Source: an uncultured Christensenellaceae bacterium (GTDB lineage: Bacteria > Bacillota > Clostridia > Christensenellales > SZUA-584). Taken from it: a stretch of DNA of 64,000 bases. The notes beneath the pieces were generated by a model. The model saw only the letters and a program-made list of their open reading frames with translations. It ran no database searches and was not told the origin of the DNA. The DNA is taken from NCBI GenBank assembly GCA_964441275.1, contig CAYTUG010000010.1, positions 6,684-70,683 on the forward strand. The letters run 5' to 3'. Shown here piece after piece: positions 9,375 to 62,770 of the stretch. How positions within the stretch are numbered: position 1 is the stretch's first letter; the number at the start of each line of letters is the position of its first letter. The translations under genes and the position numbers were made by a program.

Positions 9375-9470
9375 AACCTGTTGCAATGTCACCGGCGAAT
9401 ACCGGCGCAAATCATAGCTCATTTTTATAGCTTTTAGACGTTACAACAGTTATATTGCGGCAAGTAAACT

Positions 9471-9513
9471 TTGAGCGATTATGAGTGCGGCTTTATTTGA
9501 CAATAACCATAAT
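9471..9513 (+). promoter_or_regulatory. Putative activator-dependent late promoter of the phage structural operon
   Basis: Tandem TTGAGCG/ATGAGTG with 10-bp period (9471, 9481) and a CATAAT -10-like hexamer at 9508-9513; similar motif upstream of the holin. Confidence 0.4.
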
Positions 9514-9567: not shown

Positions 9568-9768
9568 ATGCTTATAAATATTGTAACCGCATCGGTTACG
9601 TTTGCCGGCACCTGCGCGCTTTGTATTGCGTGTTACTTAAAAGGAAAAAAAGCCGGCAAAAAAATTGCCGGCACAACAACAGCCGTACAAGAACAGCAAG
9701 AGCAAAACGCGTTGATGAAAAAATATGAGACCATAATAGGTTATGACCCTTACGGTGAAAACATATGA
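9568..9768 (+). CDS. Small membrane-anchored phage protein preceding the portal
   Basis: 66 aa from ATG 9568 behind GAAGGAGGA; N-terminal hydrophobic helix; stop overlaps the portal start. Confidence 0.7.
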   Translation: MLINIVTASVTFAGTCALCIACYLKGKKAGKKIAGTTTAVQEQQEQNALMKKYETIIGYDPYGENI

Positions 9769-11285
9769 GCATCACTTTGGCGTGGAAGGAATACGAGCAA
9801 GGGGTTGATTATAAAACGCGTATTGGCCTTTACCGTACCGTAGATTTAAACGAGCGTTTCTATGCCGGGGACCAGTGGGCGGGCATACCGCACGAGGGGT
9901 TGCCAACTCCCGTGGTAAATTTCATCCGATATGCTTCGGCATGGAAAATTGCCGCGGTAACCGACAGGCGCCTTTGTTTAAAATTTATGGCGGAGGGCGT
10001 CAACGATGGAAGCGATATTGGCGTGTACGCGAGGCAGATATCGGCTCACTGCGATCTTTTATGGGAACGGCTTAAAATGGACTATTTAACGAAAGAAGGG
10101 CTAAAACAGGCCGCGATAACCGGCGATTACGTGCAGTATTTTTATTGGGATTCATCGCTTGATACCGGTCAGGCGCTTTCCGGAGATATTGCAACCCAAC
10201 TTATTGACAACGTTAACTATTATCCGGGCAATCCTAACAGCGATGACGTGCAAAATCAACCTTATATAATTTTGTCATTTAGGGAACTGCTCTCAAAAAC
10301 ACGAAAGGAGGCGCGTGATAACGGGTGCGGCAGCTCAAACGAGATAACCGCAGATGAAAATAACGAATACGCCTCGGGAGATTGCGGAAAAATCGAGCTT
10401 GACGACAGCGGCAAATGCAATGTGCTGCTTAAGATGTACAAAAAAGACGGTAATGTGTGGTGTGAAAAATGCGTTAAAAACGCAATGGTGCAGCCGCCAA
10501 AAAACACTATGCTTACGAGATATCCAATTGCCGTTATGAACTGGGACACGCGGAAAAACTCATGCCACGGGGTGGCGGAAGTTACGGGGCTTATCCCCAA
10601 TCAGGTGTTTATTAACAAGATACTTGCGTTGTCGCAGCTTAACCAGATGCAGCTTAGCTTTCCTAAAGTGGTGTATGACCGCACGAGAATACGCGAGTGG
10701 AGCAACAAAGTTGCGGGGGCAATTGCGGTAAACGGGGATATAAGCGGAGCGGCGCAATATCTTTCCCCTCCCGGGATGTCGTATGACGCATGGAAGGGTT
10801 TAAACTCGACATTAGAAACCACTATGAGGATGATGGGCGCAAACGAAGTTACGCTTGGAAACATAAAAAACCCGGACAACACATCGGCTTTTATTGCGAC
10901 AAGGGATGCCGCTCTTGTGCCTTTGCAATCCCAGCAAGAGAGGTTTTATGCTTTCGTTGAAGATATCGGTTTGATATGGCTTGACTTTATTAAGCAGTAT
11001 TACCGGGCGGGGCGCATGATACCCGTTGAGCAAGACGGCGACCGGGTTTTCGTGCCGCTGCCCGATAACGTTTTGCAACAATATTCTATGCGGCTTAAAG
11101 TGGACGTTGGGCCTTCTTCTATGTGGAGCGAGGTTCAAGTTATAAAAACATTAGATAATCTCTTAAAGGGCGGACAGATAAGCTTGAGGCAATACCTTGA
11201 ACGCATGCCGGAGGGGTATATACCGCTTAAGGAAGAGTTAATAACGCAAATCAGCCAAAATGAACTACAGCCGGATGAAATGTAA
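9765..11285 (+). CDS. Phage portal protein (P22/podovirus-like)
   Basis: 506 aa; NERFYAGDQW, PVVNFI, TRYPIAVMNW..RKNSCHG, ANEVTLGN.....NTSAFIA, YLERMPEGYIP motifs typical of podophage portals; position before scaffold and capsid. Confidence 0.85.
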   Translation: MSITLAWKEYEQGVDYKTRIGLYRTVDLNERFYAGDQWAGIPHEGLPTPVVNFIRYASAWKIAAVTDRRLCLKFMAEGVNDGSDIGVYARQISAHCDLLWERLKMDYLTKEGLKQAAITGDYVQYFYWDSSLDTGQALSGDIATQLIDNVNYYPGNPNSDDVQNQPYIILSFRELLSKTRKEARDNGCGSSNEITADENNEYASGDCGKIELDDSGKCNVLLKMYKKDGNVWCEKCVKNAMVQPPKNTMLTRYPIAVMNWDTRKNSCHGVAEVTGLIPNQVFINKILALSQLNQMQLSFPKVVYDRTRIREWSNKVAGAIAVNGDISGAAQYLSPPGMSYDAWKGLNSTLETTMRMMGANEVTLGNIKNPDNTSAFIATRDAALVPLQSQQERFYAFVEDIGLIWLDFIKQYYRAGRMIPVEQDGDRVFVPLPDNVLQQYSMRLKVDVGPSSMWSEVQVIKTLDNLLKGGQISLRQYLERMPEGYIPLKEELITQISQNELQPDEM

Positions 11286-11381
11286 TTATATTTCGTTCAG
11301 TTATCAAAATAGTATAAACTCTAAATGCATTTTTCGCATAATATAAGACAGGGTTGCTGCCTTACCAAAATAGGAAAGTAG

Positions 11382-11786
11382 GTGACGCCCACGCAAGAAG
11401 ATACGTTGGAAAAAGAGCTCAAAGAAGCGTTTAAACGGCTTGAAACGGCAGACAAAGATTGCTCGCTGCTGATAAACAATGTGATTGAAAAAAATGCGGC
11501 CCGTCAAAACGGACGGATTGAGCAGCTGCATGAACAGTTAAGCAAATCGCGCGTTGCGATAGCTGAAACGGGCGGGCAAATTGTTGAGATAAAAGCCATT
11601 ATGCAAGGCGAATTAAAGCTTGTTTATGAAATGATCAACCGCCTGAATGAAAAGATAGAGCGCATAGAAGCTAACACCTCAAAAGAGCAAAACTCTAAGA
11701 TGATGTGGCGCATTGCGCTTATTGCCGCATTGCCGGGCGTAGTATCAATAGTAATAAAAATATTGGAGATCTTTTTAGCCGGTTAG
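11382..11786 (+). CDS. Coiled-coil protein with C-terminal TM helix (XhlA-like phage protein)
   Basis: Heptad-rich N-terminal ~110 aa followed by WRIALIAALPGVVSIVIKILEIFLAG. Confidence 0.55.
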   Translation: MTPTQEDTLEKELKEAFKRLETADKDCSLLINNVIEKNAARQNGRIEQLHEQLSKSRVAIAETGGQIVEIKAIMQGELKLVYEMINRLNEKIERIEANTSKEQNSKMMWRIALIAALPGVVSIVIKILEIFLAG

Positions 11787-11891
11787 AAGAGCCTGCTAAA
11801 CTATATTTGCGTTTAATCGGCAATTAATAAAATGCTTATCAAAGAAGGCTTTAAAGGCCTTTTTTGATACTTAAAAATAAGGAGATTAAAA

Positions 11892-12551
11892 ATGGAAAAC
11901 AATGCCCAACCACAGGCGCAAACGGCAAACCAGCCGGATATTCAAACCGATGTAGAAACCGGGTCAAACGATAAACAAGCGTTTTTAACGGTGCGCTACA
12001 ACAAAGAAGAGTTGCCTTTGTCCCGGGAGGCGGCAACGGAATATGCCCAAAAGGGTTTAAATTACGACAAAATAAGCGGCAGATTATCGCAATTGTCGCA
12101 AAAGGTTGAGGACTATCAGCATATTAACACTCTTGTCAGCGAAATTGCCCAGCAAAACGGAATAAGTGAAAACGACGCTTTCCTTGCACTGCGCCAGCGT
12201 GTGAGCGAAGAAGGCGCAGCACAGGCAAGTATAAACGCTCAGCTTGACGAGTTTATCGCCGCCCATCCGGATTACGATCCTTTGTCTTTGCCGGAAAGCG
12301 TAATAAACGAATGGAAAAGCGGCGTTCCGTTGTGTGATGCTTATGCCGCGTATGAAGAAATTAAAATCAGGCAGGTTAATGCACGGCAAACCAACGAGCA
12401 GAATGCCGCGGCAAGCATGGGGGGCGCGCAGGGAATAGGGGCTGCGGCGCCAAAGCCGCTTTCAAAAGAGGTTATTGCGCAGATGTCGCATTCCGAATTG
12501 GAAAACAACCATGGCAGGATATGGGCATTTTTAACGGGACAGAAAGAATAG
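11892..12551 (+). CDS. Phage capsid scaffolding protein
   Basis: Acidic helical protein, VRYNKEE...AQKGLNYDK motif, C-terminal MSHSELENN coat-binding-like end; directly upstream of the capsid gene. Confidence 0.75.
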   Translation: MENNAQPQAQTANQPDIQTDVETGSNDKQAFLTVRYNKEELPLSREAATEYAQKGLNYDKISGRLSQLSQKVEDYQHINTLVSEIAQQNGISENDAFLALRQRVSEEGAAQASINAQLDEFIAAHPDYDPLSLPESVINEWKSGVPLCDAYAAYEEIKIRQVNARQTNEQNAAASMGGAQGIGAAAPKPLSKEVIAQMSHSELENNHGRIWAFLTGQKE

Positions 12552-12566
12552 AAAGGAGAGATAGAT

Positions 12567-13406
12567 TTGCCTTACGAAAGTTTCAGGCCGGAAATTTTGG
12601 CCAAAGAGCTTATGACCGACAGGGGAAGAGATTGCGTTTTTAAAAACCTTTGCTACAAAGGTCCTATAATCGGCGAGATAGCGAAGAAGGGAGACGTTTT
12701 GCGAATAGCGGGCGTTGGACGCCCTACTGTGCGTGATTATATCCCCGGCAAAGACATAACGCTCGAGCAGAAAAAAAGCTATAACCAGGACCTGTATATA
12801 ACCGAGGCTAAGTATGTCAATGTTGAGGTGGACAGGGTAGATAAAGCGCAGGCGCAGGGAGAGGTGTTCGGGGTTGAAGTGCGGGAAGCAAAAAAGGCGC
12901 TTGCCCAAACGCTTGACGAACACCTTGCCGGGCTGCACAAACAGGCGGGCGGCGTGATAGAGAACAAAAGCTGCAATTCAGCCTCGATACTGTCTACTCT
13001 TGCGCAGGCCGAACAGGCTTTGCTTGAGATGGACGTGCCGTTTGAAGAAGAACGGTTTCTTGTAATATCGCCGGCAATTTATACAAAGCTTGTGCTTGGC
13101 AAGATAGTTTTTTTGCAGTCCAACGCCGAGGTTTTTGGCAAAGGATTTAAAGGAAGCTACTTAAATTTTGGGGTTTATGTGTCAAACTCTATCAAAAAGA
13201 CCGGTGAAGTGCACCATTGCATGGCATTTACCAGGCAGGCGATTGCGCTGGCGGAGCAAATACCGGCAAGCATGATAGAGCGTTATAAGCCCGAAAAAAC
13301 TTTTGCCGATGCCTTTAAAGTGTTGCATCTTTACGGAAGCACGGTTATAAGGCCGTCAGAGCTTATCCGCGTTGATTTAACAACGTCGGAAGAAACACAA
13401 ATATAG
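12567..13406 (+). CDS. Major capsid protein (P22 coat-like, HK97 fold)
   Basis: GEIAKKGDVLRIAGVGRPTVRDY, ITEAKYVNVEVDRVDKAQ, RFLVISP, FADAFKVLHLYGSTVIRP; TTG start behind GAAAGGAG. Confidence 0.85.
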   Translation: MPYESFRPEILAKELMTDRGRDCVFKNLCYKGPIIGEIAKKGDVLRIAGVGRPTVRDYIPGKDITLEQKKSYNQDLYITEAKYVNVEVDRVDKAQAQGEVFGVEVREAKKALAQTLDEHLAGLHKQAGGVIENKSCNSASILSTLAQAEQALLEMDVPFEEERFLVISPAIYTKLVLGKIVFLQSNAEVFGKGFKGSYLNFGVYVSNSIKKTGEVHHCMAFTRQAIALAEQIPASMIERYKPEKTFADAFKVLHLYGSTVIRPSELIRVDLTTSEETQI

Positions 13407-13418
13407 GGGGTGTTGTGT

Positions 13419-13793
13419 ATGGCTAATGTAAGCTTATTCGATATAAGCAAAGGCATGCCCGCCATTTTGCAAACCGAATCTATGACGCCGGCGGCAGCGG
13501 TACAGCAGGTGCCGTGCAAAAAAGATTCGAGGCTGTGCCTAAGGGTTTGCAATGCGAACGAGCAGGAGGACGTTGTGGTGCGGCTTAAAGCGGGCGGCGG
13601 GCCGCGGTGCGTGCTTGGAGATAAAGACATAACGGTAAAGGCGGGAGAGGTTGCGTACATTGCGCTTTGGGACACCGCGCGCTATAAAGATTTGGCAAGC
13701 GGAAACGTTAGCGTTGATTTGGTGGACGGCAACGGCGACGCTCTTAGCGAACAGTTGCTTTTACTGATTACAATAGAGGCGGCGCAGCTTTAA
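13419..13793 (+). CDS. Probable capsid decoration/cement protein
   Basis: 124-aa beta-rich protein immediately after the capsid gene; start moved to ATG 13419. Confidence 0.5.
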   Translation: MANVSLFDISKGMPAILQTESMTPAAAVQQVPCKKDSRLCLRVCNANEQEDVVVRLKAGGGPRCVLGDKDITVKAGEVAYIALWDTARYKDLASGNVSVDLVDGNGDALSEQLLLLITIEAAQL

Positions 13794-13805
13794 AGAAGCC
13801 GGACG

Positions 13806-13833
13806 GGGGGCATACCTGCCCCCTTAAATTTTT
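13806..13833 (+). terminator. Terminator-like hairpin after the capsid/decoration genes
   Basis: GGGGGCA-TACC-TGCCCCC stem followed by TTAAATTTTTT. Confidence 0.6.
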
Positions 13834-13853
13834 TAATTTTGGAGGTTGAGAAT

Positions 13854-14216
13854 ATGACTGCACAAGAAGCGTATGAGATGTCGCTTGCGCTTATCGACCA
13901 AGCCGAAGGCATTGATACTGCCGACTATGCATCAAGAGCGCCTGCTTTAATAGATGTGCTGCAGCGCGAACTTGCTTTTTATGAGGGAACAGCCGTCACA
14001 AGGCGGATAAAGAAACTTGAAGATATTTTGGAGATAGGGGAAGATACTGCAGAACGCATACTTCCCTATGGTTTGGCCGCAAACTTTGCGCTGTCCGATA
14101 AAAACGCGGATATGTATTCGGATTACAGTGCAATGTATCGCGCGCTTATTCGCACGATAAGGCCTGAAGATTCCGATATAACAGACGAGTACGGAGTTTT
14201 GGAGGGGCTTAAGTGA
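13854..14216 (+). CDS. Probable head-tail adaptor (P22 gp4 / tail tubular A-like)
   Basis: 120 aa helical, ILPYGLAANF motif, position between capsid and tail tube B; ATG 13854 behind GGAGG. Confidence 0.55.
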   Translation: MTAQEAYEMSLALIDQAEGIDTADYASRAPALIDVLQRELAFYEGTAVTRRIKKLEDILEIGEDTAERILPYGLAANFALSDKNADMYSDYSAMYRALIRTIRPEDSDITDEYGVLEGLK

Positions 14217-14267
14217 TAATCCGCCATTACCCGGGCGGGCAAACCCCAACGCAAGGAGCGAACTGCT

Positions 14268-16094
14268 ATGGAAAGAATAAAAGAGATTATGCTGCCCGAA
14301 TTAAACGGAGGGCTTAATGTTAACGATCCGGAGTATGCAATACTCGACAGCCAGAGCCACGATATGCTCAACATGTGGTACAGGGGAAAATCCTTAGTCA
14401 AGCGCAACGGTCAGGCTTTGATCGATTGCGGGATAGCGGGCGAGGTGCAAAGCATATCGCCGCTTTACTGCGATTACTATGTTGTGCATTCGAACGATAG
14501 GCTTTATAAATGGCGAGGAAATGAGGCGCAGCTGTTAAAGAGCGGCGTTGCAAGCGCCGAGGGCGTTTTTTGTGAGTTTTGCGGTACACTATATTATCTT
14601 GACGGAAATGAAATATGGGAAATCGCGCCTGATTTTAGCGTAAAGGAAGCGCGTCCTTACATACCTGTGGTAATTATAAACGCTCATCCCGACCTATCGG
14701 GCGGAGATGATAACGAGGCGTACAATATAATAGGTGCTGGATTTTGCGTAAAATACAATGGCGATGAAACATCGGCAGTGTATTCGCTGCCGCAAAAAGA
14801 GATTGACGAGACCGCGGTTTTGGTAAGCATAGACGCAGCCGATTTGAATGAAGGCGAGCATTTTAGCGTGGATAGAACGCAGGGCATTGTGAATTTTGCC
14901 GAAGGGACAAGCCCGAACGGGCCGCCCGGCGCAGGCACTAATAATGTATGGATTAGCGCGTTTAAAACGGCGCCGGAAAACAAACGGAAAATTACGGGGT
15001 GCAAAATAGCTTTGCCTTTCGGCGGGGAGGCATCCGGCATATTCGGGGGCACCAGGGTTTTTGTAACGGGCAACCCAAAGCATGCAAGAACGTACTGGCA
15101 CAGTGACTTAGGGCATGGATTGGGGAGCGGTATGCGTTATTTTCCGGATACTTGCGAAGAACATTTAAACCAAAACAATCAGCCGATAACCGCGGCGGCA
15201 AAAATGGGGGGAGAGCTCGTATTATTTAAACAGAGTTCGATATTTGTGCTTGGGTACGTATTCGACGGAGTTGACGCGTTTTACCCGGTAAGGGAGTGCC
15301 ACAGCGCCATTGGTTGTGATATGCCGAAAAGTTTAGCATTGATTGACAACGCGCTTGTTTTTGCGAATTCGAGCAGCGGAGTGCACATGCTAACGTCTAC
15401 CGACAACAAATCTGAAAACGTGGTAAAGCCGTTATCGGCAAATATAAATAAACTGCTTCTTAGTGAACCCGGGCTGCGCGATGCGTGTTCTATCGATCAC
15501 GGCAGGTACTATTGGTTATGTGCAGGAGGGCGGGCGTATCTTTGGGATTATGAGCAGACACCGTTTTATGACTTTGCAGATTACAAAAAAGCTCAACGCA
15601 GGCTTGCGTGGTATAGGTTTGATAACATAGACGCAAATGTTTTATGCGCCGATGCCGATACGCTTTATTACGGCGGCAAAAAGGGCATAGTATTATTCTG
15701 CAAAAATAAAAGCGACTTTGGCAGAAAATATGACGCTTATTTTACAACTAAGGCGTTTGATTTGATGTGTCCAAACAGATTAAAAACATTTCTAAAAGTA
15801 TATCCGAGTTTTGCGGCGCAGGGTAACATAAAAGCAACCGTTACCATATCAAGCGAAACCCATGATGTGTTTTCGAAACGAGTATTTGATATAAAGTCGT
15901 TTTCGTGGCTCGATTTTAACTGGAGCACATTTACGTTTGACGTTATAAAATTTTCAAGAACTTATGTTGTGCGTTTATCTATGCGGCGCGCCGCCTACAT
16001 ACAAATAAAGGTATCGGGAAGCGATAAAGACAGAGACGTGGGGATATCGGCGCTTAGGATAGAATACTGCTTTAACAACAAATTAAGGAGGTAA
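14268..16094 (+). CDS. Tail tubular protein B / DNA-stabilisation-like (P22 gp10 / T7 gp12-type beta-propeller)
   Basis: 608 aa; LNGGLNVND...MLNMW start, repeated beta-blade character, TRVFVTGNP, YFPD, VRECHSAIGCD motifs. Confidence 0.7.
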   Translation: MERIKEIMLPELNGGLNVNDPEYAILDSQSHDMLNMWYRGKSLVKRNGQALIDCGIAGEVQSISPLYCDYYVVHSNDRLYKWRGNEAQLLKSGVASAEGVFCEFCGTLYYLDGNEIWEIAPDFSVKEARPYIPVVIINAHPDLSGGDDNEAYNIIGAGFCVKYNGDETSAVYSLPQKEIDETAVLVSIDAADLNEGEHFSVDRTQGIVNFAEGTSPNGPPGAGTNNVWISAFKTAPENKRKITGCKIALPFGGEASGIFGGTRVFVTGNPKHARTYWHSDLGHGLGSGMRYFPDTCEEHLNQNNQPITAAAKMGGELVLFKQSSIFVLGYVFDGVDAFYPVRECHSAIGCDMPKSLALIDNALVFANSSSGVHMLTSTDNKSENVVKPLSANINKLLLSEPGLRDACSIDHGRYYWLCAGGRAYLWDYEQTPFYDFADYKKAQRRLAWYRFDNIDANVLCADADTLYYGGKKGIVLFCKNKSDFGRKYDAYFTTKAFDLMCPNRLKTFLKVYPSFAAQGNIKATVTISSETHDVFSKRVFDIKSFSWLDFNWSTFTFDVIKFSRTYVVRLSMRRAAYIQIKVSGSDKDRDVGISALRIEYCFNNKLRR

Positions 16095-16097
16095 GAT

Positions 16098-17030
16098 ATG
16101 GCGTTTGACAGGATGGCTTTTGAACCGCCGGAAGGTTTGCGCAATTCGGAATATTATCCGACTGCGCCCGAAAGCGAAGCTGATGCGCGCGAACAAGTGC
16201 AAGGGGTTTCCGACCAGATTAAAGAATTCTTAAACGAAACATTGCTGCCGCAGGTTGAGAATGCGGCCGCAGGCTGCTCGGGTGCGCAAAAAATAGGCAG
16301 CGAGGAGATACAAGGGGTTGACGGGACAAATGTTTTTGCGCAGATTGTCAGCCTTAAAACGCAGATAGACGATGTTTCGGCAGGCAGCGTCAGCGATGGT
16401 TCTATCACTACCCAAAAGATTGCGGAAGCTGCGGTTACCAAAGCAAAGGTTGCAAACAATGCGATTGGGGAGGCGCAATTAGCCCCAAGCGCCGTCACTC
16501 AAGAAAAGATTTGTAACGGAGCGGTCAGCGGAACGAAGATAGCCGAAAGCGCGGTTGCAGGCAACCATATAATGCCGGCGGCGGTATCGGGTGCGCATAT
16601 TGCCGACGGGGCGATCGGCAATACAAAGATAGCGGCGGGCGCGGTTAGCGCAACGAAGATTGCGGACGGGTGCGTTACCAAGTCCAAACTTTCACAAGCT
16701 GCGCTTGGATGGTCATTGGTGTTGGAAGAAGGGTTGAATTCGGGAAACGGAAGCATAGACATGCCGAGCCAGGCGGGCAAATCCGAAATGATGATACAGC
16801 TAAAAAGCGCGGACGGGATAGTGGCGTATGGCGAATCTGTTGCGCCCCTGAACGCGGAAGGGCGCACCATACCATATATGCACAACATAAGCACTTTCAA
16901 CCCCGGCAATTTCTCAGTGGATTACAGAACGATAACGGTGGGGGCTGTACAGATAAGCTACACATCTTCAAGAGCGGAAACAGTAGGAGGCTCAACCAAT
17001 CTTAAGCGGATAAGCGTTTTTACAAGATAG
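16098..17030 (+). CDS. Tail fibre/spike-like protein with decapeptide repeats
   Basis: Last gene of the module; ten 10-aa repeats of GAV(T/S)xxKIAx type; distinct beta-rich C-terminal domain. Confidence 0.65.
   Translation: MAFDRMAFEPPEGLRNSEYYPTAPESEADAREQVQGVSDQIKEFLNETLLPQVENAAAGCSGAQKIGSEEIQGVDGTNVFAQIVSLKTQIDDVSAGSVSDGSITTQKIAEAAVTKAKVANNAIGEAQLAPSAVTQEKICNGAVSGTKIAESAVAGNHIMPAAVSGAHIADGAIGNTKIAAGAVSATKIADGCVTKSKLSQAALGWSLVLEEGLNSGNGSIDMPSQAGKSEMMIQLKSADGIVAYGESVAPLNAEGRTIPYMHNISTFNPGNFSVDYRTITVGAVQISYTSSRAETVGGSTNLKRISVFTR
16398..16697 (+). repeat. Ten tandem 30-nt / 10-aa repeats inside the tail fibre gene
   Basis: aa 101-200: GSITTQKIAE AAVTKAKVAN NAIGEAQLAP SAVTQEKICN GAVSGTKIAE SAVAGNHIMP AAVSGAHIAD GAIGNTKIAA GAVSATKIAD GCVTKSKLSQ. 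Confidence 0.9.
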
Positions 17031-55180: not shown

Positions 55181-56806
55181 ATGGAAAAACACTGCTATGT
55201 AAATTATGCCGGGCGCAAAAACATTAAGACATATTTTGACGACTGCACGCGGCTATGGCAGATTGCCGGCAATCTTGGGGCTAAAGATGCGGTGTGCGCA
55301 CTGCTTAACGGCCGTTTAGTTTCGCTTTCCGATGCGCCGGAAGAGGGTGCGAGCGTAACGCTGCTAAAACCAACTGAACATGAACATGCATCACGCGTAT
55401 TTATGCGCGGGCTGACATTTGTGCTCTACCGCGCAGCACATGAACTGTTCCCGGACAGAAAACTGCGTATAGATTATATGCTTTGCGGAGGCGTTTACTG
55501 TGAATTGGGAAAGCTCAATAAAAACGATATTGACAGAATACAAAAAAGAATGTACGAGCTAATAGCGAAAGATGAAGATTTTGTGTTAAGGCTTATGCGG
55601 GTTGACGAGGCCGAAAGGATAATGCGCAAAGAGGGGCTTGAATCAAAGGCAAAGCTGCTGAAGTTTCGGCCGTTTGATTATTACCGTCTTTATCAATACG
55701 GACAATTGCATAACTATTTTCACGGTATAATGCCCAAAAGTGCGGGCTGCCTTAAAGGCTCTAACATTTTTGCATATGCAGACGGCATGATACTCGTATA
55801 TCCGACTCCTTATTCAATGGCGCACACCCCCATCATTGAACAACCCAAATATGCTGAGATATTCCGGCAGGCCGACCGCTGGGCAAAAGAGCTTTCGGCT
55901 TCTTATGTAACCGATTTAAACAACCTTCTAAGGGAAGGCAATATTGAGGAGTTAATAAACATTAACGAGATGCTGCACGAACGCACCATTTCGGAAATAG
56001 CAAATACTATTGCAAACAGAAAGGATGTTCGGGTGGTGCTTATTGCGGGGCCCTCGTCCTCAGGAAAAACGACTTTGGCTTCCCGTCTAACTGTTCACTT
56101 AAAGGCGCAAGCCAAGCGATGTTTTGCCGTATCGCTTGATGATTACTATAAAGATAAAGCAGACCAGCCATTGGGTGAAGACGGTGAATACGATTTTGAA
56201 AGCATAGATGCGCTGGACATTCCTAAGTTTAGCAATGATATAAAGCTGCTTCTTTCGGGGGCGCAAGCCCAAATGCCTAAGTACGATTTCTTTTCGGGCG
56301 TCCGGGTTAAAACTGTGCCCATAGAGATTGACGATGAGATTGTAATTGTTGAGGGCATACATGGCTTAAACAACGCATTGCTTGAAAGTTTAGAAAGAAA
56401 ATTTAAGTTTAAAATATTTATTTCGCCGCTTACCACTCTTAACTTAGACGAGCACAGCGTTGTCATGCCCGAAGATTTGCGGCTTTTAAGGCGGTTAGTG
56501 AGGGACAAAAGGGCAAGAGGTTTTTCGTTCGCGCAAACTTTTGCTATTTGGGATAAGGTAAGGCATGGCGAATACAAGTACATATTGCCGTATCAAGAGT
56601 CGGCGGATGTAATGTTTAATTCCACATTGCTCTACGAGCCGCTGATACTAAAAAAATATGCGTACAGCGAATTGAGACGCTTTACACCCGATATGCCAAA
56701 TTATCCCGAGGCGTTATCTCTGCTTAAGTTCTTGAATTACTTTTTAAGTTATGGCGAGGATGGCTCCGTTCCCCGCTACAGCATATTGCGCGAATTTATT
56801 GGATAA
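55181..56806 (+). CDS. Uridine kinase/phosphoribulokinase-family protein with N-terminal TGS/ThrRS-like domains
   Basis: IAGPSSSGKTT, SLDDYY, VEGIHGLN, RRLVRD, YQESADVMFNS; N-terminal region resembling ThrRS N1/N2. Confidence 0.85.
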   Translation: MEKHCYVNYAGRKNIKTYFDDCTRLWQIAGNLGAKDAVCALLNGRLVSLSDAPEEGASVTLLKPTEHEHASRVFMRGLTFVLYRAAHELFPDRKLRIDYMLCGGVYCELGKLNKNDIDRIQKRMYELIAKDEDFVLRLMRVDEAERIMRKEGLESKAKLLKFRPFDYYRLYQYGQLHNYFHGIMPKSAGCLKGSNIFAYADGMILVYPTPYSMAHTPIIEQPKYAEIFRQADRWAKELSASYVTDLNNLLREGNIEELININEMLHERTISEIANTIANRKDVRVVLIAGPSSSGKTTLASRLTVHLKAQAKRCFAVSLDDYYKDKADQPLGEDGEYDFESIDALDIPKFSNDIKLLLSGAQAQMPKYDFFSGVRVKTVPIEIDDEIVIVEGIHGLNNALLESLERKFKFKIFISPLTTLNLDEHSVVMPEDLRLLRRLVRDKRARGFSFAQTFAIWDKVRHGEYKYILPYQESADVMFNSTLLYEPLILKKYAYSELRRFTPDMPNYPEALSLLKFLNYFLSYGEDGSVPRYSILREFIG

Positions 56807-56847
56807 ATGTAATTAGTATTTGCGGCTGGCCGGCTGTTATCGGCGCT

Positions 56848-56901
56848 AAAATGAGCGGCATTGAGCGAACCTGTGATGTAACCTTTTTTTGCGGGGATAA
56901 T
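56848..56901 (+). promoter_or_regulatory. Putative activator-dependent late promoter of the holin operon
   Basis: ATGAGCG/TTGAGCG with 10-bp period (56851, 56861) and GATAAT at 56896-56901. Confidence 0.4.
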
Positions 56902-56926
56902 GCATCCTTGCGGAAAGGAGGCTTTT

Positions 56927-57319
56927 ATGGATTGGACACAGGTTGTGACAGCTGTTGTAGGGCTGATGTTTACCGGGGTGTTGTTGCCGCTTATAAACGC
57001 TTTATTCGTGTGGCTGAAAAACAAAACGAGCAATGACCAAATGTTCGCGGCGCTTTGCGAGGCTCAAACAGTTGCGGATGATGTTGTGGCAAGCCTTTCG
57101 GCCACCGTGGTCAGCTCTCTTAAAAAAGCAAGCGGCAACGGAAAGTTAACGGCCGATGATGCAAAAAAAGTGGCCGCATTAGCGGCGGAGCAATTTATTA
57201 GCGATTTGTCCGAGCGGTCGCTTGAGCTGCTGAAAAACAGGACGGATGATTTTGCATCGTATGTTGCCCGGTTGATTGAGGCGCGGCTGGTTGTGCTTAA
57301 AGGAGGGGGAAAGGCGTGA
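56927..57319 (+). CDS. Phage holin-like protein (LL-H type)
   Basis: 130 aa from ATG 56927 behind GAAAGGAGG; N-terminal TM, then LKKASGNGKLTADDAK...LIEARL soluble part typical of LL-H holins. Confidence 0.7.
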   Translation: MDWTQVVTAVVGLMFTGVLLPLINALFVWLKNKTSNDQMFAALCEAQTVADDVVASLSATVVSSLKKASGNGKLTADDAKKVAALAAEQFISDLSERSLELLKNRTDDFASYVARLIEARLVVLKGGGKA

Positions 57320-57936
57320 ATGCGGCGGACAGCATTAAAAGCTATTTTGACAACCTTGAGCAAGCACAAAAAGCTTCGATTATAGCGCAGTTTGAACAGG
57401 CCTACGCAGAGCTGCAAAAAAAGTATGAAAACGTGCCGGCGCAATATCAGTATCTCAAAAATGAAGCGTATGTAAATAACGCGCTAATCGAAAAGGCCCG
57501 CCGTGAAAACATGGCAAACATGGGGTTAGGCGGTACCGGAGGAGCTTCTCAAACTTTGGAGCAACGTAACACGGGGCGGCTTTTAAGAGAGATTGGAGAC
57601 ATTTCAAGACAGCAACAGGATTACAGCGATAACGTTAACATGGCTTTGTACAATCTGAAAACAAAGCACAAAGCCGACTTAACGGAAGTAGAATCTAAAA
57701 CGGCGTCCGAGCGTATAGCCGCTTTAACCGAACAGGCGCGTTTTGAAGCGCAATTCGAGCAAGCGCGGCAAAAAAACTTGTTTGACCAGGCTTACAGCCT
57801 TTACAAGAAAAAACTAATAACCGCAGCGCAATTTACAGAGATGACAGGCATAGCTTTGAAAAAGAGCGGTTCAAAAAAGAATAAAAACCCCGTGCAAAAG
57901 AGCACGCCGTATATTGATAATTATTATATGGTTTAG
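57316..57936 (+). CDS. Phage virion-associated (internal/ejection-like) helical protein
   Basis: Q/A-rich helical protein with AYVNN...RENMANMGLGGTGGASQT motif recalled from Clostridial podophage late proteins; coupled to the holin gene. Confidence 0.5.
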   Translation: MNAADSIKSYFDNLEQAQKASIIAQFEQAYAELQKKYENVPAQYQYLKNEAYVNNALIEKARRENMANMGLGGTGGASQTLEQRNTGRLLREIGDISRQQQDYSDNVNMALYNLKTKHKADLTEVESKTASERIAALTEQARFEAQFEQARQKNLFDQAYSLYKKKLITAAQFTEMTGIALKKSGSKKNKNPVQKSTPYIDNYYMV

Positions 57937-57942
57937 TGTAAC

Positions 57943-57963
57943 AGGGGCGAGATGAACCGCCCC
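57943..57963 (+). terminator. Hairpin after the holin operon
   Basis: GGGGCG-AGATGAAC-CGCCCC stem. Confidence 0.55.
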
Positions 57964-58280
57964 GTTAACAAAAACGGTGTGAAAAAGCAGCATTAACACC
58001 GCCGACGTTTTACAAGCGGCTAAACCTTGTAATAGTCCAATGTTAGAACCTGCGGAATGCGGCAGCAAATCTAACATCTTGCAAGCCAGCTTTTTGGGTT
58101 TTCCGAATCAGCAAAAGTAAAACAAAAATTAGCGCTTATATATCAAGTATATTATGCGGTTATCGAATCTAATAATTTAATAACACAATCAAAGGGTTAA
58201 TTGGAGCCGCTAATATGCTTAGCAAACAAAAACTGATTACAAAAAATCGCAGAGTAATTTAGTGCGAGCCGCCTAAACAG

Positions 58281-58685
58281 CTATTTTTTTTGGTCGGCGT
58301 TTGCTTGCTTATCGTCTTTCATTGCCTGGGCGAGCTTAATGGCAAGCCGAAGTTCTTCACCGCTTACGTTGCGCTCTGCAAGCTCTTCCAACATTTCTAA
58401 CGTAATTCCGCGGCTTGACAGCGCGGGCGATAGAGTGGGCTGATTCAGGGTTTTATAACGGTGCTGCTGCGCAATTCCAAGAAGGTAATCGGCTGAGCAT
58501 ACCAAAGCGTCGCAAAGCTTTTCAAGAACCTCTATTGACGGGCGCTTGCGCCCACTCTCTATCTCCGCAAGAAAAGCCTGGGTGATACCAATGCGCGCGG
58601 AAAGCTGAGACTGCGTTAAACCGAGCTGCTGCCGCTGATGCTTTAATTTTTTGGGGAGGCTGTCCAAATTAGTTACTTCCTTCAT
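58281..58685 (-). CDS. XRE-family CI-like repressor
   Basis: LKHQRQQLGLTQSQLSARIGITQAFLAEIESGRKRPSIEVL HTH; start probably ATG 58685 or TTG 58667, not 58862. Confidence 0.88.
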   Translation of the reverse strand: MKEVTNLDSLPKKLKHQRQQLGLTQSQLSARIGITQAFLAEIESGRKRPSIEVLEKLCDALVCSADYLLGIAQQHRYKTLNQPTLSPALSSRGITLEMLEELAERNVSGEELRLAIKLAQAMKDDKQANADQKK

Positions 58686-58710
58686 ATAATAATTTAAGGC
58701 ACACAAATGG

Positions 58711-58784
58711 ATTATAGCCATAAGCGATAGATTTGTAAAGTATAGCTTTAAGCTATTGACAACTTGTTTGATTTTGGATAGGGT
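58711..58784. promoter_or_regulatory. Divergent promoter pair with two 15-bp operators (lambda-like switch)
   Basis: Leftward TTTACA-17-TATAAT (58739..58711); rightward TTGACA-17-TAGGGT (58756..58784); operators ATAGCcataAGCgAT (58714-58728) and ATAGCtttaAGCTAT (58742-58756). Confidence 0.75.
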
Positions 58785-58808
58785 GAAAGAGAATACGGAG
58801 GTGAGATC

Positions 58809-59045
58809 ATGAGAGTGGCGTTGGCTTTGATACGTGAGGGCGCGAATATTTCGCAGGTGCAAATTTCTAAAAGAGCAGGAATATCTCAGGGCTATTATTC
58901 AGACATTGAATGCGGCGTCAGACGCCCTTCGCCCGATGTTGCGGTGCGCATTGCGCGGGCGCTCGACATCCCCGAATGTGAAATATTCAGCATATTTTAC
59001 AATGAGAATCAAAGCAGAAAAGGACATGCAACACGGTTATCATAA
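58809..59045 (+). CDS. Cro-like XRE HTH protein
   Basis: 78 aa, ISQVQISKRAGISQGYYSDIECGVRRPSPDVA; GGAGGTG RBS; divergent from the CI-like gene. Confidence 0.88.
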   Translation: MRVALALIREGANISQVQISKRAGISQGYYSDIECGVRRPSPDVAVRIARALDIPECEIFSIFYNENQSRKGHATRLS

Positions 59046-59180
59046 TTTATCACTTTAAAAGAGTATCATGACTTTGTGACATATCGCAGCGTAAAGTTGC
59101 GCATTTGGGTTTCTGATGGGCAATTTTCTCCTGTTTTCAAATGCGGTTAGACGCCGTAATATTAGTTGCGAGGTTAATCT

Positions 59181-59651
59181 ATGAGAGAAATAGAAATATT
59201 TTTAAAGGATTATTGGTATGCTACACGCAGCATAGGCAGGTTGATGCTTGATTTATCGGCCGCGCGGCACGCTTATGAACAAAGCCGCCAATATATACCG
59301 TCTACAGGCGGGCTGATAAAAACAAATAGATCGCGCTATGCGCATGACAGCGCGGTTGAGAAGGCGGTAATACTTGCGGTGGATCAATTCCGTGCTGAAG
59401 TTGAAAGCATTGAGCGCAGGCTAAACTACGAAAGGCGCACCATTGAAATTATTGAACAGACGGTTGCCAACGCGGGACTGTCCGCACCTGAAGCCGCATA
59501 CATAAGATTGCGTTACTTCGAGGGAAAAAGTGTAGAAGCTTCTGCGCAGCGTTTGTTTTGCTCGGTAGCAACAGCCGGAAGAATAAGAGTTTGCGCGCTT
59601 GATAAAATAGAGAATGCGGTGGGGAAGGAGAATATTGCAAAAGCGCTGTGA
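59181..59651 (+). CDS. RinA/ArpU-family phage late transcriptional activator
   Basis: 156 aa; N-terminal coiled coil, C-terminal sigma4-like HTH IRLRYFEGKSVEASAQRLFCSVATAGRIR. Confidence 0.75.
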   Translation: MREIEIFLKDYWYATRSIGRLMLDLSAARHAYEQSRQYIPSTGGLIKTNRSRYAHDSAVEKAVILAVDQFRAEVESIERRLNYERRTIEIIEQTVANAGLSAPEAAYIRLRYFEGKSVEASAQRLFCSVATAGRIRVCALDKIENAVGKENIAKAL

Positions 59652-59919
59652 AACAATAAATTAAACGGAATGAGTCAGAAAGGCGGGACGAAAGTTGATA
59701 CATTAAGTTGACAAATATGTTTTTGCAAAAGGTTTAGAACATGCAAAACCCAATACCAGGTTACGCCCAAGATGCCTTAATACCGGTTGCCGAGAAGATA
59801 TTTTTCCGGAATTATTATTCAATTATATTTGATTTTTGGCAATGTGAAACCAAGTAACAAAACTACATAACAATAAGCGAAGCATATGAATATATATAAT
59901 CACAGGGGGGTGAAGACTT

Positions 59920-60045
59920 ATGTGTGGCGGATACTCCTGCGGTCGCAGCCAAATGCGAAGCAGTTACCGCAGCCGTAGTTGCTTATGCAACTGTTTGTGC
60001 GGTTGCTTGGGCTGCTGCTTTTGCCGTGGCAGGCGTTGTTGGTAG
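59920..60045 (+). CDS. 41-aa Cys-rich peptide (below the ORF-track length cutoff)
   Basis: MCGGYSCGRSQMRSSYRSRSCLCNCLCGCLGCCFCRGRRCW*; AGGGGGGTGA RBS. Confidence 0.6.
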   Translation: MCGGYSCGRSQMRSSYRSRSCLCNCLCGCLGCCFCRGRRCW

Positions 60046-60129
60046 AATATAATTCAGACGGCTCGCCACTACAGGCGGGCCATACATGCAGCATGGGCCG
60101 CCCTCCTTATTCTGCGATATATTTTGACA

Positions 60130-60249
60130 TTATCCGTCATGCGGATTTGCCTCGTTGCTGTGAACAAGACGAATATTTTCAGGAAGCCCCAAATCGTTGT
60201 TCCTATTCTTAATTTTGGGCGCTCTTTTTTTTGTTTTTTTCTGTTTCAT
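60130..60249 (-). CDS. 39-aa basic small protein (below the ORF-track length cutoff)
   Basis: MKQKKTKKRAPKIKNRNNDLGLPENIRLVHSNEANPHDG*; AGGAG RBS; CATACTA upstream. Confidence 0.45.
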   Translation of the reverse strand: MKQKKTKKRAPKIKNRNNDLGLPENIRLVHSNEANPHDG

Positions 60250-60360
60250 AAGATGCTCCTTTTTGTTTTTAGTATGCGCAATAAGGCGTTTAGATAATCA
60301 TAAAACGAAATAAATCAGAGCGCATGCATAGCAATGCCAATCTTAGTATTTAGTTGCGCA

Positions 60361-60894
60361 TCAAAGCTGTTTTGCGTTTTCGGTTATCTGCGCAATTTCA
60401 TTTCTGCCCGCAAGTTTATTTATGGCTAACGCAATAAAGACAATGCCAAATAGGCTTACGGCAAGGCGGGTCAGTGTAAACAATGCGCCCATAGACGCAA
60501 ATTCGAAAAGAAGCATAGGAATTTTTGTCGTCGACCATGCGCCTATAAATAATAGTATGTTAATAAAACTTGAGCCTTTCTTCATAAAAATTGCGGCTAC
60601 CGGGAACGCGGCATAAAGCGGGCCCGCTGCGGCGGAACCGAGCAAAACGGCAAGAGCGCCTCCGCGGACTCCGGAACCTTTGCCTAAAAAACGTACCATT
60701 GTTTCGCGAGGCACCCAAACGTCAAGCAATCCCAAAAGCACGAATATAGGCGGCACCACAAGCAACATTTCTTTGATTCCCGTAAGCGATTTTTCAAACG
60801 CAACGCCACCCTTATCGGGCATAAAAATAAGCAAAGCTATAAGAACAACAAGGGTAACCAAAGAGAAAGAATATCGTTTAAGCAATTTTTTCAT
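60361..60894 (-). CDS. Predicted permease (DUF318/ArsP-like), subunit 2
   Basis: LLGLLDVWVP, GSAAAGPLYAAFPVA, GAWSTTKIPMLLFE. Confidence 0.8.
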   Translation of the reverse strand: MKKLLKRYSFSLVTLVVLIALLIFMPDKGGVAFEKSLTGIKEMLLVVPPIFVLLGLLDVWVPRETMVRFLGKGSGVRGGALAVLLGSAAAGPLYAAFPVAAIFMKKGSSFINILLFIGAWSTTKIPMLLFEFASMGALFTLTRLAVSLFGIVFIALAINKLAGRNEIAQITENAKQL

Positions 60895-61757: not shown

Positions 61758-61879
61758 GCTACACCTACATTCACACAGACTATATACATAGCGCATATAG
61801 CGTCATCAACAATATATTAAAAAAGATTGTGTTTGTCAATAGTTTTTTTAATCGGCTTATAAGTTGTCAAATGATAAGT

Positions 61880-62420
61880 TCACCGGACTATTTATACACG
61901 ATATCACTTACAGAGCTGTATGATATAGCATATAAACCCAAGATGAAGATTGTCGATAATCTTATTTGCTTGGGAGTGTATCTGTTTGCGGGAGCACCAG
62001 AGGCGGGTAAATACTTTTATGGCTCAACTCGGGTACCATGTAAGCAGAGATGTTCCCCTGTGGGAGCATACGGTTTATAAAGGTACAGTATCTTGCTTTG
62101 GAGGGCGATTACGGAAGGCTACAAAAGCGTTTACCCCGTATATTTAGTATGGATGGTATTGACAACTTTCACTTTGCTACTCATGCCAAAAACCTGCGGG
62201 AAGGTCTGGACGGACAGTTAAAAAAGTTTATGCGGGAGCATCCCGATACCAAACTGATTATCATTGGTACCCTTCAAAGAATTCGTTAGGTGGGCGGCGA
62301 GAAATATAGTTACGCCAGCGATTATGAAATCGTAACACGACTCAAGCAAACTGCAGATCAGTATAACATATGCATCCTGATAGTCCATCATACACGGAAG
62401 CAAGACATTTCTCGAGATAG
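61880..62420 (+). pseudogene. Disrupted AAA_25/RepA-like helicase of a Clostridial integrative element
   Basis: Pieces in three frames (TISLTELYD..GVYLFAGAPEAGK / MAQLGYHVS..LW..KGTV / YLALEGDY..LIIIGTLQRIR*VGGEKYSYASDYE..LIVHHTRKQ): two frameshifts and a TAG at 62287. Confidence 0.8.
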
Positions 62421-62440
62421 ATAAACTGGGCCGGAAAAAG

Positions 62441-62770
62441 ATGTTCGGAAGAGTAGAATTAATCGAGCAGAATTACAAGGAGATGATATCCTTTGCAAAG
62501 GAAGGAATTCTTCCCCGGAATAAGATAACCGATTTGATACGGCAGTTACGCGAAAGTTCATCGGGGTTATTTAGTTCGCAGAGCAGCTGGGAACAGCTTT
62601 ACGAACAGACTATTGACTTTCATCAGACAATGAAGTTAGCACCGCAACACATAAAGGAAGTCTTTGCTGGGATATTCTTAAAGGATAGTGAAGAACGCGC
62701 AGCGCGGACGATGATCTTTGACGATTTTTATTGGAATTGCAAATTAAGCAGTATACAAAAGCGGGTGTAA
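62441..62770 (+). CDS. Hypothetical protein or fragment within the mobile-element remnant
   Basis: 109-aa ORF from the track; no recognised motif. Confidence 0.3.
   Translation: MFGRVELIEQNYKEMISFAKEGILPRNKITDLIRQLRESSSGLFSSQSSWEQLYEQTIDFHQTMKLAPQHIKEVFAGIFLKDSEERAARTMIFDDFYWNCKLSSIQKRV

Follow-up and report, generated by a model that had tools for sequence, protein, structure and literature searches.

Can a phage-type repressor switch that stands in a bacterial chromosome still be a working control circuit, and if so, what would it control? The question arises from a window of 64,000 nucleotides (contig CAYTUG010000010.1 of assembly GCA_964441275.1) from an uncultured Christensenellaceae-type bacterium, a metagenome-assembled genome (MAG) from bioreactor and wastewater samples, in which a CI-like and a Cro-like gene of the XRE family diverge from a short spacer that holds putative promoters and operators. 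A first-pass annotation of the window had described this spacer as an intact, lambda-like control region, a framing that implies a prophage immunity switch. Comparison with related genomes instead leads us to consider it likely that the locus is a chromosomal, inherited repressor/anti-repressor switch of phage origin that controls scattered phage-derived genes, present here in a reduced form.

Results

A conserved control core between divergent XRE genes

The spacer holds a leftward promoter in front of the repressor gene, a rightward promoter in front of the Cro-like gene and two related 15-bp putative operators, which we call OC and OL (Table 1); direct reading of positions 58600-58900 places all of these exactly where the first-pass annotation had put them. 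The leftward promoter matches consensus at 11 of 12 positions across a 17-bp spacer and is the top promoter-like site in a scan of 57900-59900, which does not list the rightward promoter because its -10, with 3 of 6 consensus bases, falls under the threshold. The last base of OC is also the first of the rightward -35; at its other end OC is separated by 2 bp from the leftward -35, and its centre lies about 45 bp upstream of the predicted leftward start. OC occupies the same position in 19 of 19 species and fits ATAGC-N5-GCTAT without mismatch in all but one of the species that were scanned site by site. OL, whose centre lies 28 bp from that of OC, is a poor 7-1-7 palindrome (4/7) with one mismatch to the consensus derived from relatives, ATAGCY-N3-RGCTAT: a G for T in the right half-site (AGCGAT for AGCTAT). 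This right half, defect included, is identical in all 19 species, which argues that the site is tuned to low affinity and kept weak on purpose. A repeat finder extends the OC-OL pair to 19 nt at 79% identity, and perfect 7-1-7 palindromes number 355 in the 1.83-Mb genome that carries the window, so that 0.024 would be expected in a spacer of 123 bp.

Conservation sets this region apart from its surroundings. In an alignment of 19 species anchored on the rightward -35, whose repressors are 39-77% identical to that of the window, the 51-bp core from the leftward -10 to the rightward -35 has a mean column identity of 0.94, with 36 of 51 columns invariant and zero gaps; the 21 bp to its left have an identity of 0.47 and no invariant column. 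Synonymous sites of ci, cro and the activator gene are saturated over the same divergence (synonymous divergence, dS, 0.5 to >3; ratio of nonsynonymous to synonymous divergence, dN/dS, 0.04-0.18), and a core that stayed nearly frozen meanwhile must be constrained far more than neutral DNA. Since it lies between the two predicted start sites, near 58704 for the leftward and 58791 for the rightward promoter, the core would be neither coding nor transcribed, and no Rfam family reached threshold in 56500-60500. Independent wastewater assemblies about 99% identical to the window differ from it in the spacer by two single-nucleotide polymorphisms (SNPs; 58731 and 58764), both outside all hexamers and both operators, and by no insertion or deletion. 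When 185,579 species genomes were searched with a 24-position pattern of the core, 23 matched, each at a single place; all 23 are Christensenellales-type or unclassified Clostridia/Bacillota MAGs. No contig of IMG/VR matches the pattern.

The proteins that would read these sites are conserved along with them. The recognition helix of the repressor (GITQAF..EIE.G) is invariant or nearly so across species, and that of the Cro-like protein (ISQGYYS[DE]IE) is conserved in 18 species with one D/E change; the two helices are related to each other. The earlier argument from preserved sites to a functional switch is thus strengthened, as invariant sites and invariant recognition helices together favour real operators, and we judge it probable from this comparative evidence that the locus is a functional repressor switch acting on the activator operon.

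The same operators appear to serve this locus alone. A scan of the genome for the ATAGC-type sites that the first-pass annotation had in mind, with ATAGCY-N3-RGC[TG]AT, found four places, of which two are the sites described here and two lie inside long open reading frames (ORFs). Other genome matches to the operator consensus were set aside, being inside ORFs of 483-531 amino acids and at chance expectation; outside ORFs, the consensus scan gave no other plausible operator anywhere in the genome. The motif is not enriched genome-wide (63 matches vs 85 in a reversed control), from which the XRE proteins appear to regulate only their own locus. Two further candidates were rejected. An apparent third site within cro (58881-58895, ATATCTCAGGGCTAT) arises from the codons that encode the invariant ISQGYY helix, and GGG or GGT in relatives breaks its half-site; ATAGC half-sites at 9414-9438, upstream of a phage-derived structural operon described below, are not conserved in relatives.

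Repressor and Cro-like proteins

The repressor most likely starts at TTG 58667 rather than at ATG 58685, which would give a longer reading of 134 amino acids, because a conserved Shine-Dalgarno sequence stands 8 nt upstream of the TTG and relatives begin MNDLPKK there. Its structural model predicts a five-helix helix-turn-helix (HTH) domain at residues 7-68, joined by a disordered linker to a small C-terminal domain made of helices (87-133). Pfam, NCBIfam and PHROG scans of the repressor returned HTH matches only, and with the short all-helical C-terminus of the model this bears out the earlier remark that the protein has no S24 peptidase domain; since none was found, the non-SOS induction proposed with it, through a trigger other than RecA, remains plausible. 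The nearest solved sequences are the 434 repressor, SinR, P22 C2, ImmR and the repressor of phage phi106, and the C-terminal domain alone has no relative in the PDB. Both genes evolve under constraint, with dN/dS of 0.08-0.15 for the repressor and 0.04-0.18 for the Cro-like gene.

A reduced form of a larger module

A comparison with relatives brings out the losses of the window. Of the 19 species, 16 have a third operator, ATAGCY-N3-AGCTAT, 43 bp to the right of OC, beginning just after the rightward -10 and spanning the start site; relatives thus hold their operators at fixed spacings of 28 and 43 bp, and some have a fourth site in the repressor leader. The window and the two species closest to it have no third operator or a decayed one, and its presence in 16 of 19 species marks it as ancestral and lost here. 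At the same 17-bp spacing, the rightward -10 of relatives is TAGATT, TAAATT, TAAAAT, TATAAT or TAGAAT, and TAGGGT in the window and the two closest species. Between cro and the activator gene, relatives carry two small genes, for a helical protein of about 70 amino acids and a CxxC...CxxC zinc-ribbon protein of about 75; both are missing from the window, whose cro-activator junction is contiguous and free of insertions and deletions in the independent wastewater assemblies, and one close relative keeps only the zinc-ribbon gene. The helical protein reads MQD...KTKD...AAAALVLTELAL and the zinc-ribbon protein C.YCG...C.xC...RFAW (loci L006-L016 and L038-L043); beyond weak zinc-ribbon hints neither has a Pfam family, and the two could be anti-repressors or co-activators.

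The description of this architecture as intact therefore has to be given up: the third operator, the better -10 and the two genes between cro and the activator have all been lost relative to relatives, and by this comparison the window holds a reduced derivative of a three-operator, five-gene module. As the reduced form is common to three species and stable in natural strains, and as its genes are constrained, we read it as a working minimal version and not as debris. One 151-nt, low-depth wastewater contig from run X5 matches only the core 58711-58761, with 3 differences, and then diverges into third-operator sequence, TTTATAGCCA, which points to a second species with the full three-operator switch in the same community.

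The activator and its candidate target operons

The last gene of the rightward operon encodes a sigma-like activator. Against the model of extracytoplasmic-function (ECF) sigma factors, TIGR02937, it scores 22.9 bits, under the cut-off of 42.9, and it matches PHROG 3512, 'sigma factor', at E=1.7e-3; its structural model has no Foldseek match below E=0.1, with ECF sigmas among the weak matches, and its sequence has no relative in the PDB. Of the 40 family genomes compared, 37 carry an orthologue, and 0 of about 145 genomes of other families in the order do.

Two operons of the window are candidate outputs. The structural operon matches PHROG families for a portal (3.2e-23), a major head protein (1.7e-34) and a tail fibre (6.1e-22), and its portal is found in 33 of the 40 family genomes at 73-89% identity, except in two genomes at 47-48%. 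The holin-like operon is syntenic with the switch across the genus; its 206-aa gene has a faint C-terminal match to the PBSX family XkdX (E=0.049). The genome contains exactly two copies of a tandem repeat, TGAG[CT]G-N4-TGAG[CT]G (about 1 expected by chance), which lie upstream of and co-oriented with these two operons. In the complete genome G013, of the same genus, the looser TGAGYG-N4-TGAGNG again falls at exactly the structural and holin-like operon positions. In G024, from another genus of the family, the looser form occurs at 6 places vs 0 for a reversed control, one of them preceding a large-terminase operon. Across the family the repeat stands at 20 of 26 portal loci, compared with 1 of 23 outside it, where the activator is also absent. 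Moreover, in a subclade with TGAAAG/TGAAAT repeats the activator has C-W-R-[IL]-K-[NKL] in the second helix of its C-terminal HTH, and elsewhere C-G-R-[LI]-R-V; this co-variation is the best available evidence that the activator would read the tandem repeats. Relative to -10-like elements the repeat is displaced by about one helical turn between the two operons, a difference that fits an activator site better than a -35 element.

Four tandem-repeat promoters of G024 (L148, L151, L153, L155) lie within 20 kb at C1:2536101-2556766, about 22 kb from the switch, and precede a portal operon, the terminase operon and two copies of a gene starting MSNSSPYNWFEEDEEE. The stand-alone terminase of the present genome (G000:C1:90709-92166, - strand; 485 aa) is 64% identical to the motif-preceded terminase of G024 and comes right after a ferredoxin gene and its terminator. 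On a separate contig of a relative, at L141 (G005:C1:148604), a tandem repeat precedes head-tail- or tail-like phage genes, maybe a further late operon or a related prophage. G013 (locus L019, C1:1857100-1858700) retains both small genes and the activator, along with the two operons that bear the motif, and has no ci, cro or operators; at its switch position there is only a short unrelated XRE fragment.

A chromosomal setting

The surroundings of the switch are cellular, with genes for a response regulator with an HD domain, a uridine-kinase-like protein, permeases and PadR. The DNA of the region is present in 22 of 22 genomes of the genus, in a conserved order of uridine-kinase-like gene (udk), holin-like gene, 206-aa gene, a variable stretch, ci, cro and activator gene. 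We found no integrase, replication or att features around the switch, no phage-like genes directly after the activator, no INPHARED phage record matching the region and no relative of the activator in IMG/VR or, by tblastn against 50,697 phage records, in INPHARED. With cellular flanks, synteny throughout the genus, a family-wide module and absence from phage collections, the framing of the locus as a prophage immunity region does not hold; as read from genome comparison, it is a chromosomal, vertically inherited module of phage origin. A restriction-modification controller or an XRE toxin-antitoxin pair was also considered and rejected, as about 5 kb of sequence to the left and right, both in the window and in relatives, holds no restriction, methylase or toxin gene.

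Two further features lie downstream. At 59920-60052, two overlapping ORFs of 41-42 amino acids, one frame Cys-rich and the other Ala/Val-rich and hydrophobic, follow a strong GGGGGGTG Shine-Dalgarno sequence, and at 61829-62770 a run of short + strand ORFs, with no PHROG or NCBIfam match, resembles one broken gene of a decayed element.

Table 1. Coordinates of the switch, its genes and the proposed target operons in the window (HTH, helix-turn-helix; aa, amino acids)
Feature	Position	Strand	Remarks
Control core (leftward -10, OL, leftward -35, OC, rightward -35)	58711-58761	.	51 bp; 19-species alignment
Leftward promoter -10, TATAAT	58711-58716	-	promoter scan; ATTATAGC invariant in 19 species
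Weak operator OL, ATAGCCATAAGCGAT	58714-58728	.	putative site; 3-bp overlap with leftward -10, extends into the spacer
Leftward promoter -35, TTTACA	58734-58739	-	promoter scan; TTTACA or TATACA at the same place in relatives
Strong operator OC, ATAGCTTTAAGCTAT	58742-58756	.	putative site; perfect 7-1-7 palindrome
Rightward promoter -35, TTGACA	58756-58761	+	direct reading; perfect; TTGAC invariant in 19 species
Rightward promoter -10, TAGGGT	58779-58784	+	17-bp spacer; only T1, A2 and T6 as in consensus
Place of the lost third operator, OR	58785-58800	.	window has GAAAGAGAATACGGAG and a 5-nt deletion
CI-like XRE repressor gene	58281-58667	-	128 aa from TTG 58667; HTH_3 E=7.6e-17, no other domain
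Repressor Shine-Dalgarno, AAGGAAG	58676-58682	-	8 nt before TTG 58667; AAGGAG/AAGGAA conserved in 12 species
Cro-like XRE gene	58809-59045	+	78 aa; HTH_3 E=2e-14; Shine-Dalgarno GGAGGTG at 58797-58803
Shortened cro-activator spacer	59046-59180	+	135 nt; weak hairpins at 59085-59101 and 59142-59158
Sigma-like activator gene	59181-59651	+	156 aa; model with helical hairpin and C-terminal three-helix HTH; PHROG 36 E=4.3e-11
Tandem repeat, TGAGCGGCATTGAGCG	56852-56867	+	upstream of holin-like operon; proposed activator target; conserved before the same gene in relatives
Holin-like gene (56927-57319) and 206-aa gene (57316-57936)	56927-57936	+	proposed late operon; weak PHROG holin matches, E=9.6e-5
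Tandem repeat, TGAGCGATTATGAGTG	9472-9487	+	upstream of head/tail operon; proposed activator target
Phage-derived structural operon (portal, major head protein, virion protein, tail fibre)	9569-17030	+	proposed circuit output

Discussion

In the circuit that we propose, the 128-aa XRE repressor would be made from the strong leftward promoter, and a repressor dimer on OC would shut the rightward operon from cro to the activator gene, a role for the perfect site that the first-pass annotation had foreseen and that the geometry fits, as OC abuts or overlaps the rightward -35. At higher levels the repressor would also fill the imperfect OL over its own -10 and limit its own synthesis; the earlier idea of autorepression through the weaker site gains from the overlap of OL with the leftward -10 and spacer and from the conservation of its single defect. 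The leftward promoter is close to consensus, so that lambda-style activation of the repressor's own promoter would not be needed. Once the rightward operon fires, the Cro-like protein probably binds the same sites and lowers the leftward promoter, which would give two stable states. The distribution of the tandem TGAGCG repeats and their co-variation with the activator suggest that the activator most likely turns on the distant head/tail and holin-like operons through them, and the switch would then decide whether the cell makes phage-like, gene-transfer-agent-like (GTA-like) particles and lyses. In this genome, the weakened rightward -10 possibly compensates for the lost third operator. That the output of the switch is a GTA-like particle system is a suggestion for which we find the case nearly balanced, somewhat short of even.

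The losses in this lineage would also be expected if the switch worked elsewhere in the family and were being dismantled in this reduced genome of 1.8 Mb, with a silent rightward operon or a repressor that merely autoregulates: the third operator is lost, the -10 has degraded to TAGGGT, both genes between cro and the activator are deleted, the gene-bearing DNA that relatives carry between the 206-aa gene and ci is missing as well, and a decayed element lies nearby at 61.8-62.8 kb. We think such decay unlikely, because the three ORFs are intact, with dN/dS of 0.07-0.18 vs the nearest relatives, all invariant core positions are kept, strains from independent samples share the arrangement with SNPs that avoid its elements, and TAGGGT and the decayed third operator recur in the two closest species, so that this form has been maintained across speciation. 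A regulator of host lysis or secretion, controlling only the neighbouring holin-like operon, for instance in programmed lysis or to release a product, while the head/tail operon is regulated separately, would suit a switch whose syntenic neighbour throughout the genus is that operon, with the structural operon 40 kb off and the portal not found in the switch-bearing MAGs G007, G014 and G020. These MAGs, however, are 85-92% complete, and in both this genome and G013 the rare tandem repeat stands before these two operons and nowhere else; in G024 it also precedes a terminase operon; we regard so narrow a role as quite improbable.

Domesticated repressors can confer immunity, and a retained module of this kind, whose repressor silences incoming phages with the same operators (superinfection exclusion), would explain why the pair of operator and recognition helix is frozen, as expected for a match to an external target. 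It would leave the conserved Cro-like gene and the activator unexplained, and such operators are found neither in the phage collections, where IMG/VR has no contig with the core pattern and INPHARED has no match to the region or the activator, nor elsewhere in the genome outside ORFs, which makes it very unlikely. Nor do the divergent XRE genes and the matches to hidden Markov models of phage families make an ordinary prophage immunity region more than a highly improbable explanation, as there are no integrase, replication or att features, the flanks are cellular, the chromosomal position is the same across species, and the module occurs in nearly all genomes of the family and in none of the phage collections.

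Several observations weigh against the chromosomal switch that we prefer. Its rightward -10 is poor (3/6), and together with the lost third operator and the two lost genes this means that in this lineage the circuit may have lost strength or be in decay. The absence of ci, cro and operators from G013 implies that the switch is dispensable or replaceable. The activator can be called a sigma factor only tentatively, as its NCBIfam score is below the cut-off and its structural model has no significant match, and the large-terminase gene of this genome, on another contig, has no tandem repeat upstream. Co-occurrence of switch and portal does not discriminate, as both are near-universal in the family and the MAGs are incomplete. 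Finally, the organism is known only as an uncultured MAG, a search of RNA sequencing runs found none that contains the locus, and we have read the switch from sequence.

With these points in mind, we tentatively propose that the family keeps a complete two-repressor phage switch as the master control of a scattered, domesticated GTA-like system, of which the present genome holds a minimal working form. GTA-like packaging has recently been reported in gut Clostridia, including Christensenellaceae, without assignment of its genes or regulators in that family. Should our proposal hold, the circuit would run from the switch through the activator to promoters with tandem repeats at the head/tail and lysis operons and, in relatives, at packaging operons, and would determine what share of cells lyse and release particles; its DNA contacts would have remained unchanged while synonymous sites diverged to saturation. 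The locus offers a concrete control point, consisting of a defined repressor, two or three operators and an activator with a candidate motif that changes together with its DNA-reading helix, and a natural example of a phage switch conserved after domestication and pared down in one lineage.

Known systems provide parallels for this circuit. The PBSX-like region of Bacillus pumilus 15.1 has the gene order XRE(-)/XRE(+)/small genes/sigma-like factor (PMC8347963). As in the Xre-Xpf cassette of PBSX, and by likeness of gene order, a small, peptidase-less XRE gene diverges here from an operon that starts with a second XRE gene and ends in a sigma-like factor, and in relatives of the window small genes with no assigned function lie within that operon between the XRE and sigma-like genes. 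PBSX, the defective prophage of B. subtilis, is likewise a domesticated, vertically inherited phage-like element, whose factor turns on late structural and lysis genes, and its Xre reportedly binds several operators in the intergenic region. In contrast to PBSX, the proposed late genes are scattered here and do not directly follow the cassette: one candidate operon lies 2 kb upstream, the other is 40 kb off, and the terminase gene stands on another contig. The particle genes belong to a podovirus-like type, with no contractile tail, and the operator sequence and the spacing of 28 and 43 bp are lineage-specific, with two operators in this genome.

The lambda-like character that had first been ascribed to the locus stands in part: divergent HTH_3 genes do share a short control region, whereas three graded operators, an S24 domain and residence in a prophage are not found. 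The operators of relatives, over the rightward start, the rightward -35 and the leftward promoter, follow the order of OR1, OR2 and OR3 in lambda, 434 and P22, with the weakest site likewise over the repressor's own promoter, and the HTH sequences of the 434 repressor, SinR and P22 C2 are the closest solved ones to that of the repressor. Lambda repressor bound at OR2 touches RNA polymerase, and the centre of OC lies near the equivalent position. Unlike in lambda, the spacings are 28 and 43 bp rather than 23-24 bp, the repressor has no S24 autopeptidase, the leftward promoter is close to consensus, the locus is not in a prophage and the OR1 equivalent has been lost in this genome.

For induction, the closest parallels are small repressors that are relieved by protein partners. 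The phage phi106 repressor is bound by the small anti-repressor AimX (PDB 9sf2; bioRxiv 10.1101/2025.11.23.689978). Like it, and like SinR, the partner of SinI (PDB 1b0n), the repressor here combines an HTH_3 domain with a C-terminal one that is short (about 50-60 residues) and helical, and its weak full-length matches are to 1b0n (Foldseek, 2.8e-4) and to 9sf2 (profile match over residues 7-123). By analogy, this resemblance suggests that a small anti-repressor protein, and not cleavage, would induce the switch, in line with the anti-repressor that the first-pass annotation had offered as one possibility; since the C-terminal domain alone matched nothing in the PDB, the resemblance to SinR and the phi106 repressor lies mainly in the HTH. 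Unlike in those systems, the two small genes that could act as anti-repressors in relatives are absent from this genome.

The closest counterparts at the level of the whole system come from GTAs. In Caulobacter crescentus, the cI-like RogA represses GafYZ, which activates dispersed GTA loci (PMC9632790). There, as proposed here, a repressor acts directly on the promoter of the activator gene through inverted repeats, and the activator induces a main particle cluster together with dispersed loci and lysis; the proteins, however, bear no relation to those of our locus: RogA contains a degenerate S24-like domain, and GafYZ differs from the activator here. The Caulobacter system also lacks a Cro-like antagonist and a divergent-promoter switch, and its host belongs to the Alphaproteobacteria. 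FpGTA of Faecalibacterium prausnitzii is a podovirus-like, split GTA for which no regulators are described, and GTA-like packaging was also seen in Christensenellaceae (PMC12946183). Its gene organisation is similar, with a domesticated podovirus-like particle system in separate operons of gut or anaerobic Clostridia, and our locus, from a different family, would supply a regulatory layer. The locus thus joins the kind of system represented by PBSX and RogA in a new lineage, and it is distinguished among them by an unusually well-preserved operator set and a naturally reduced variant.

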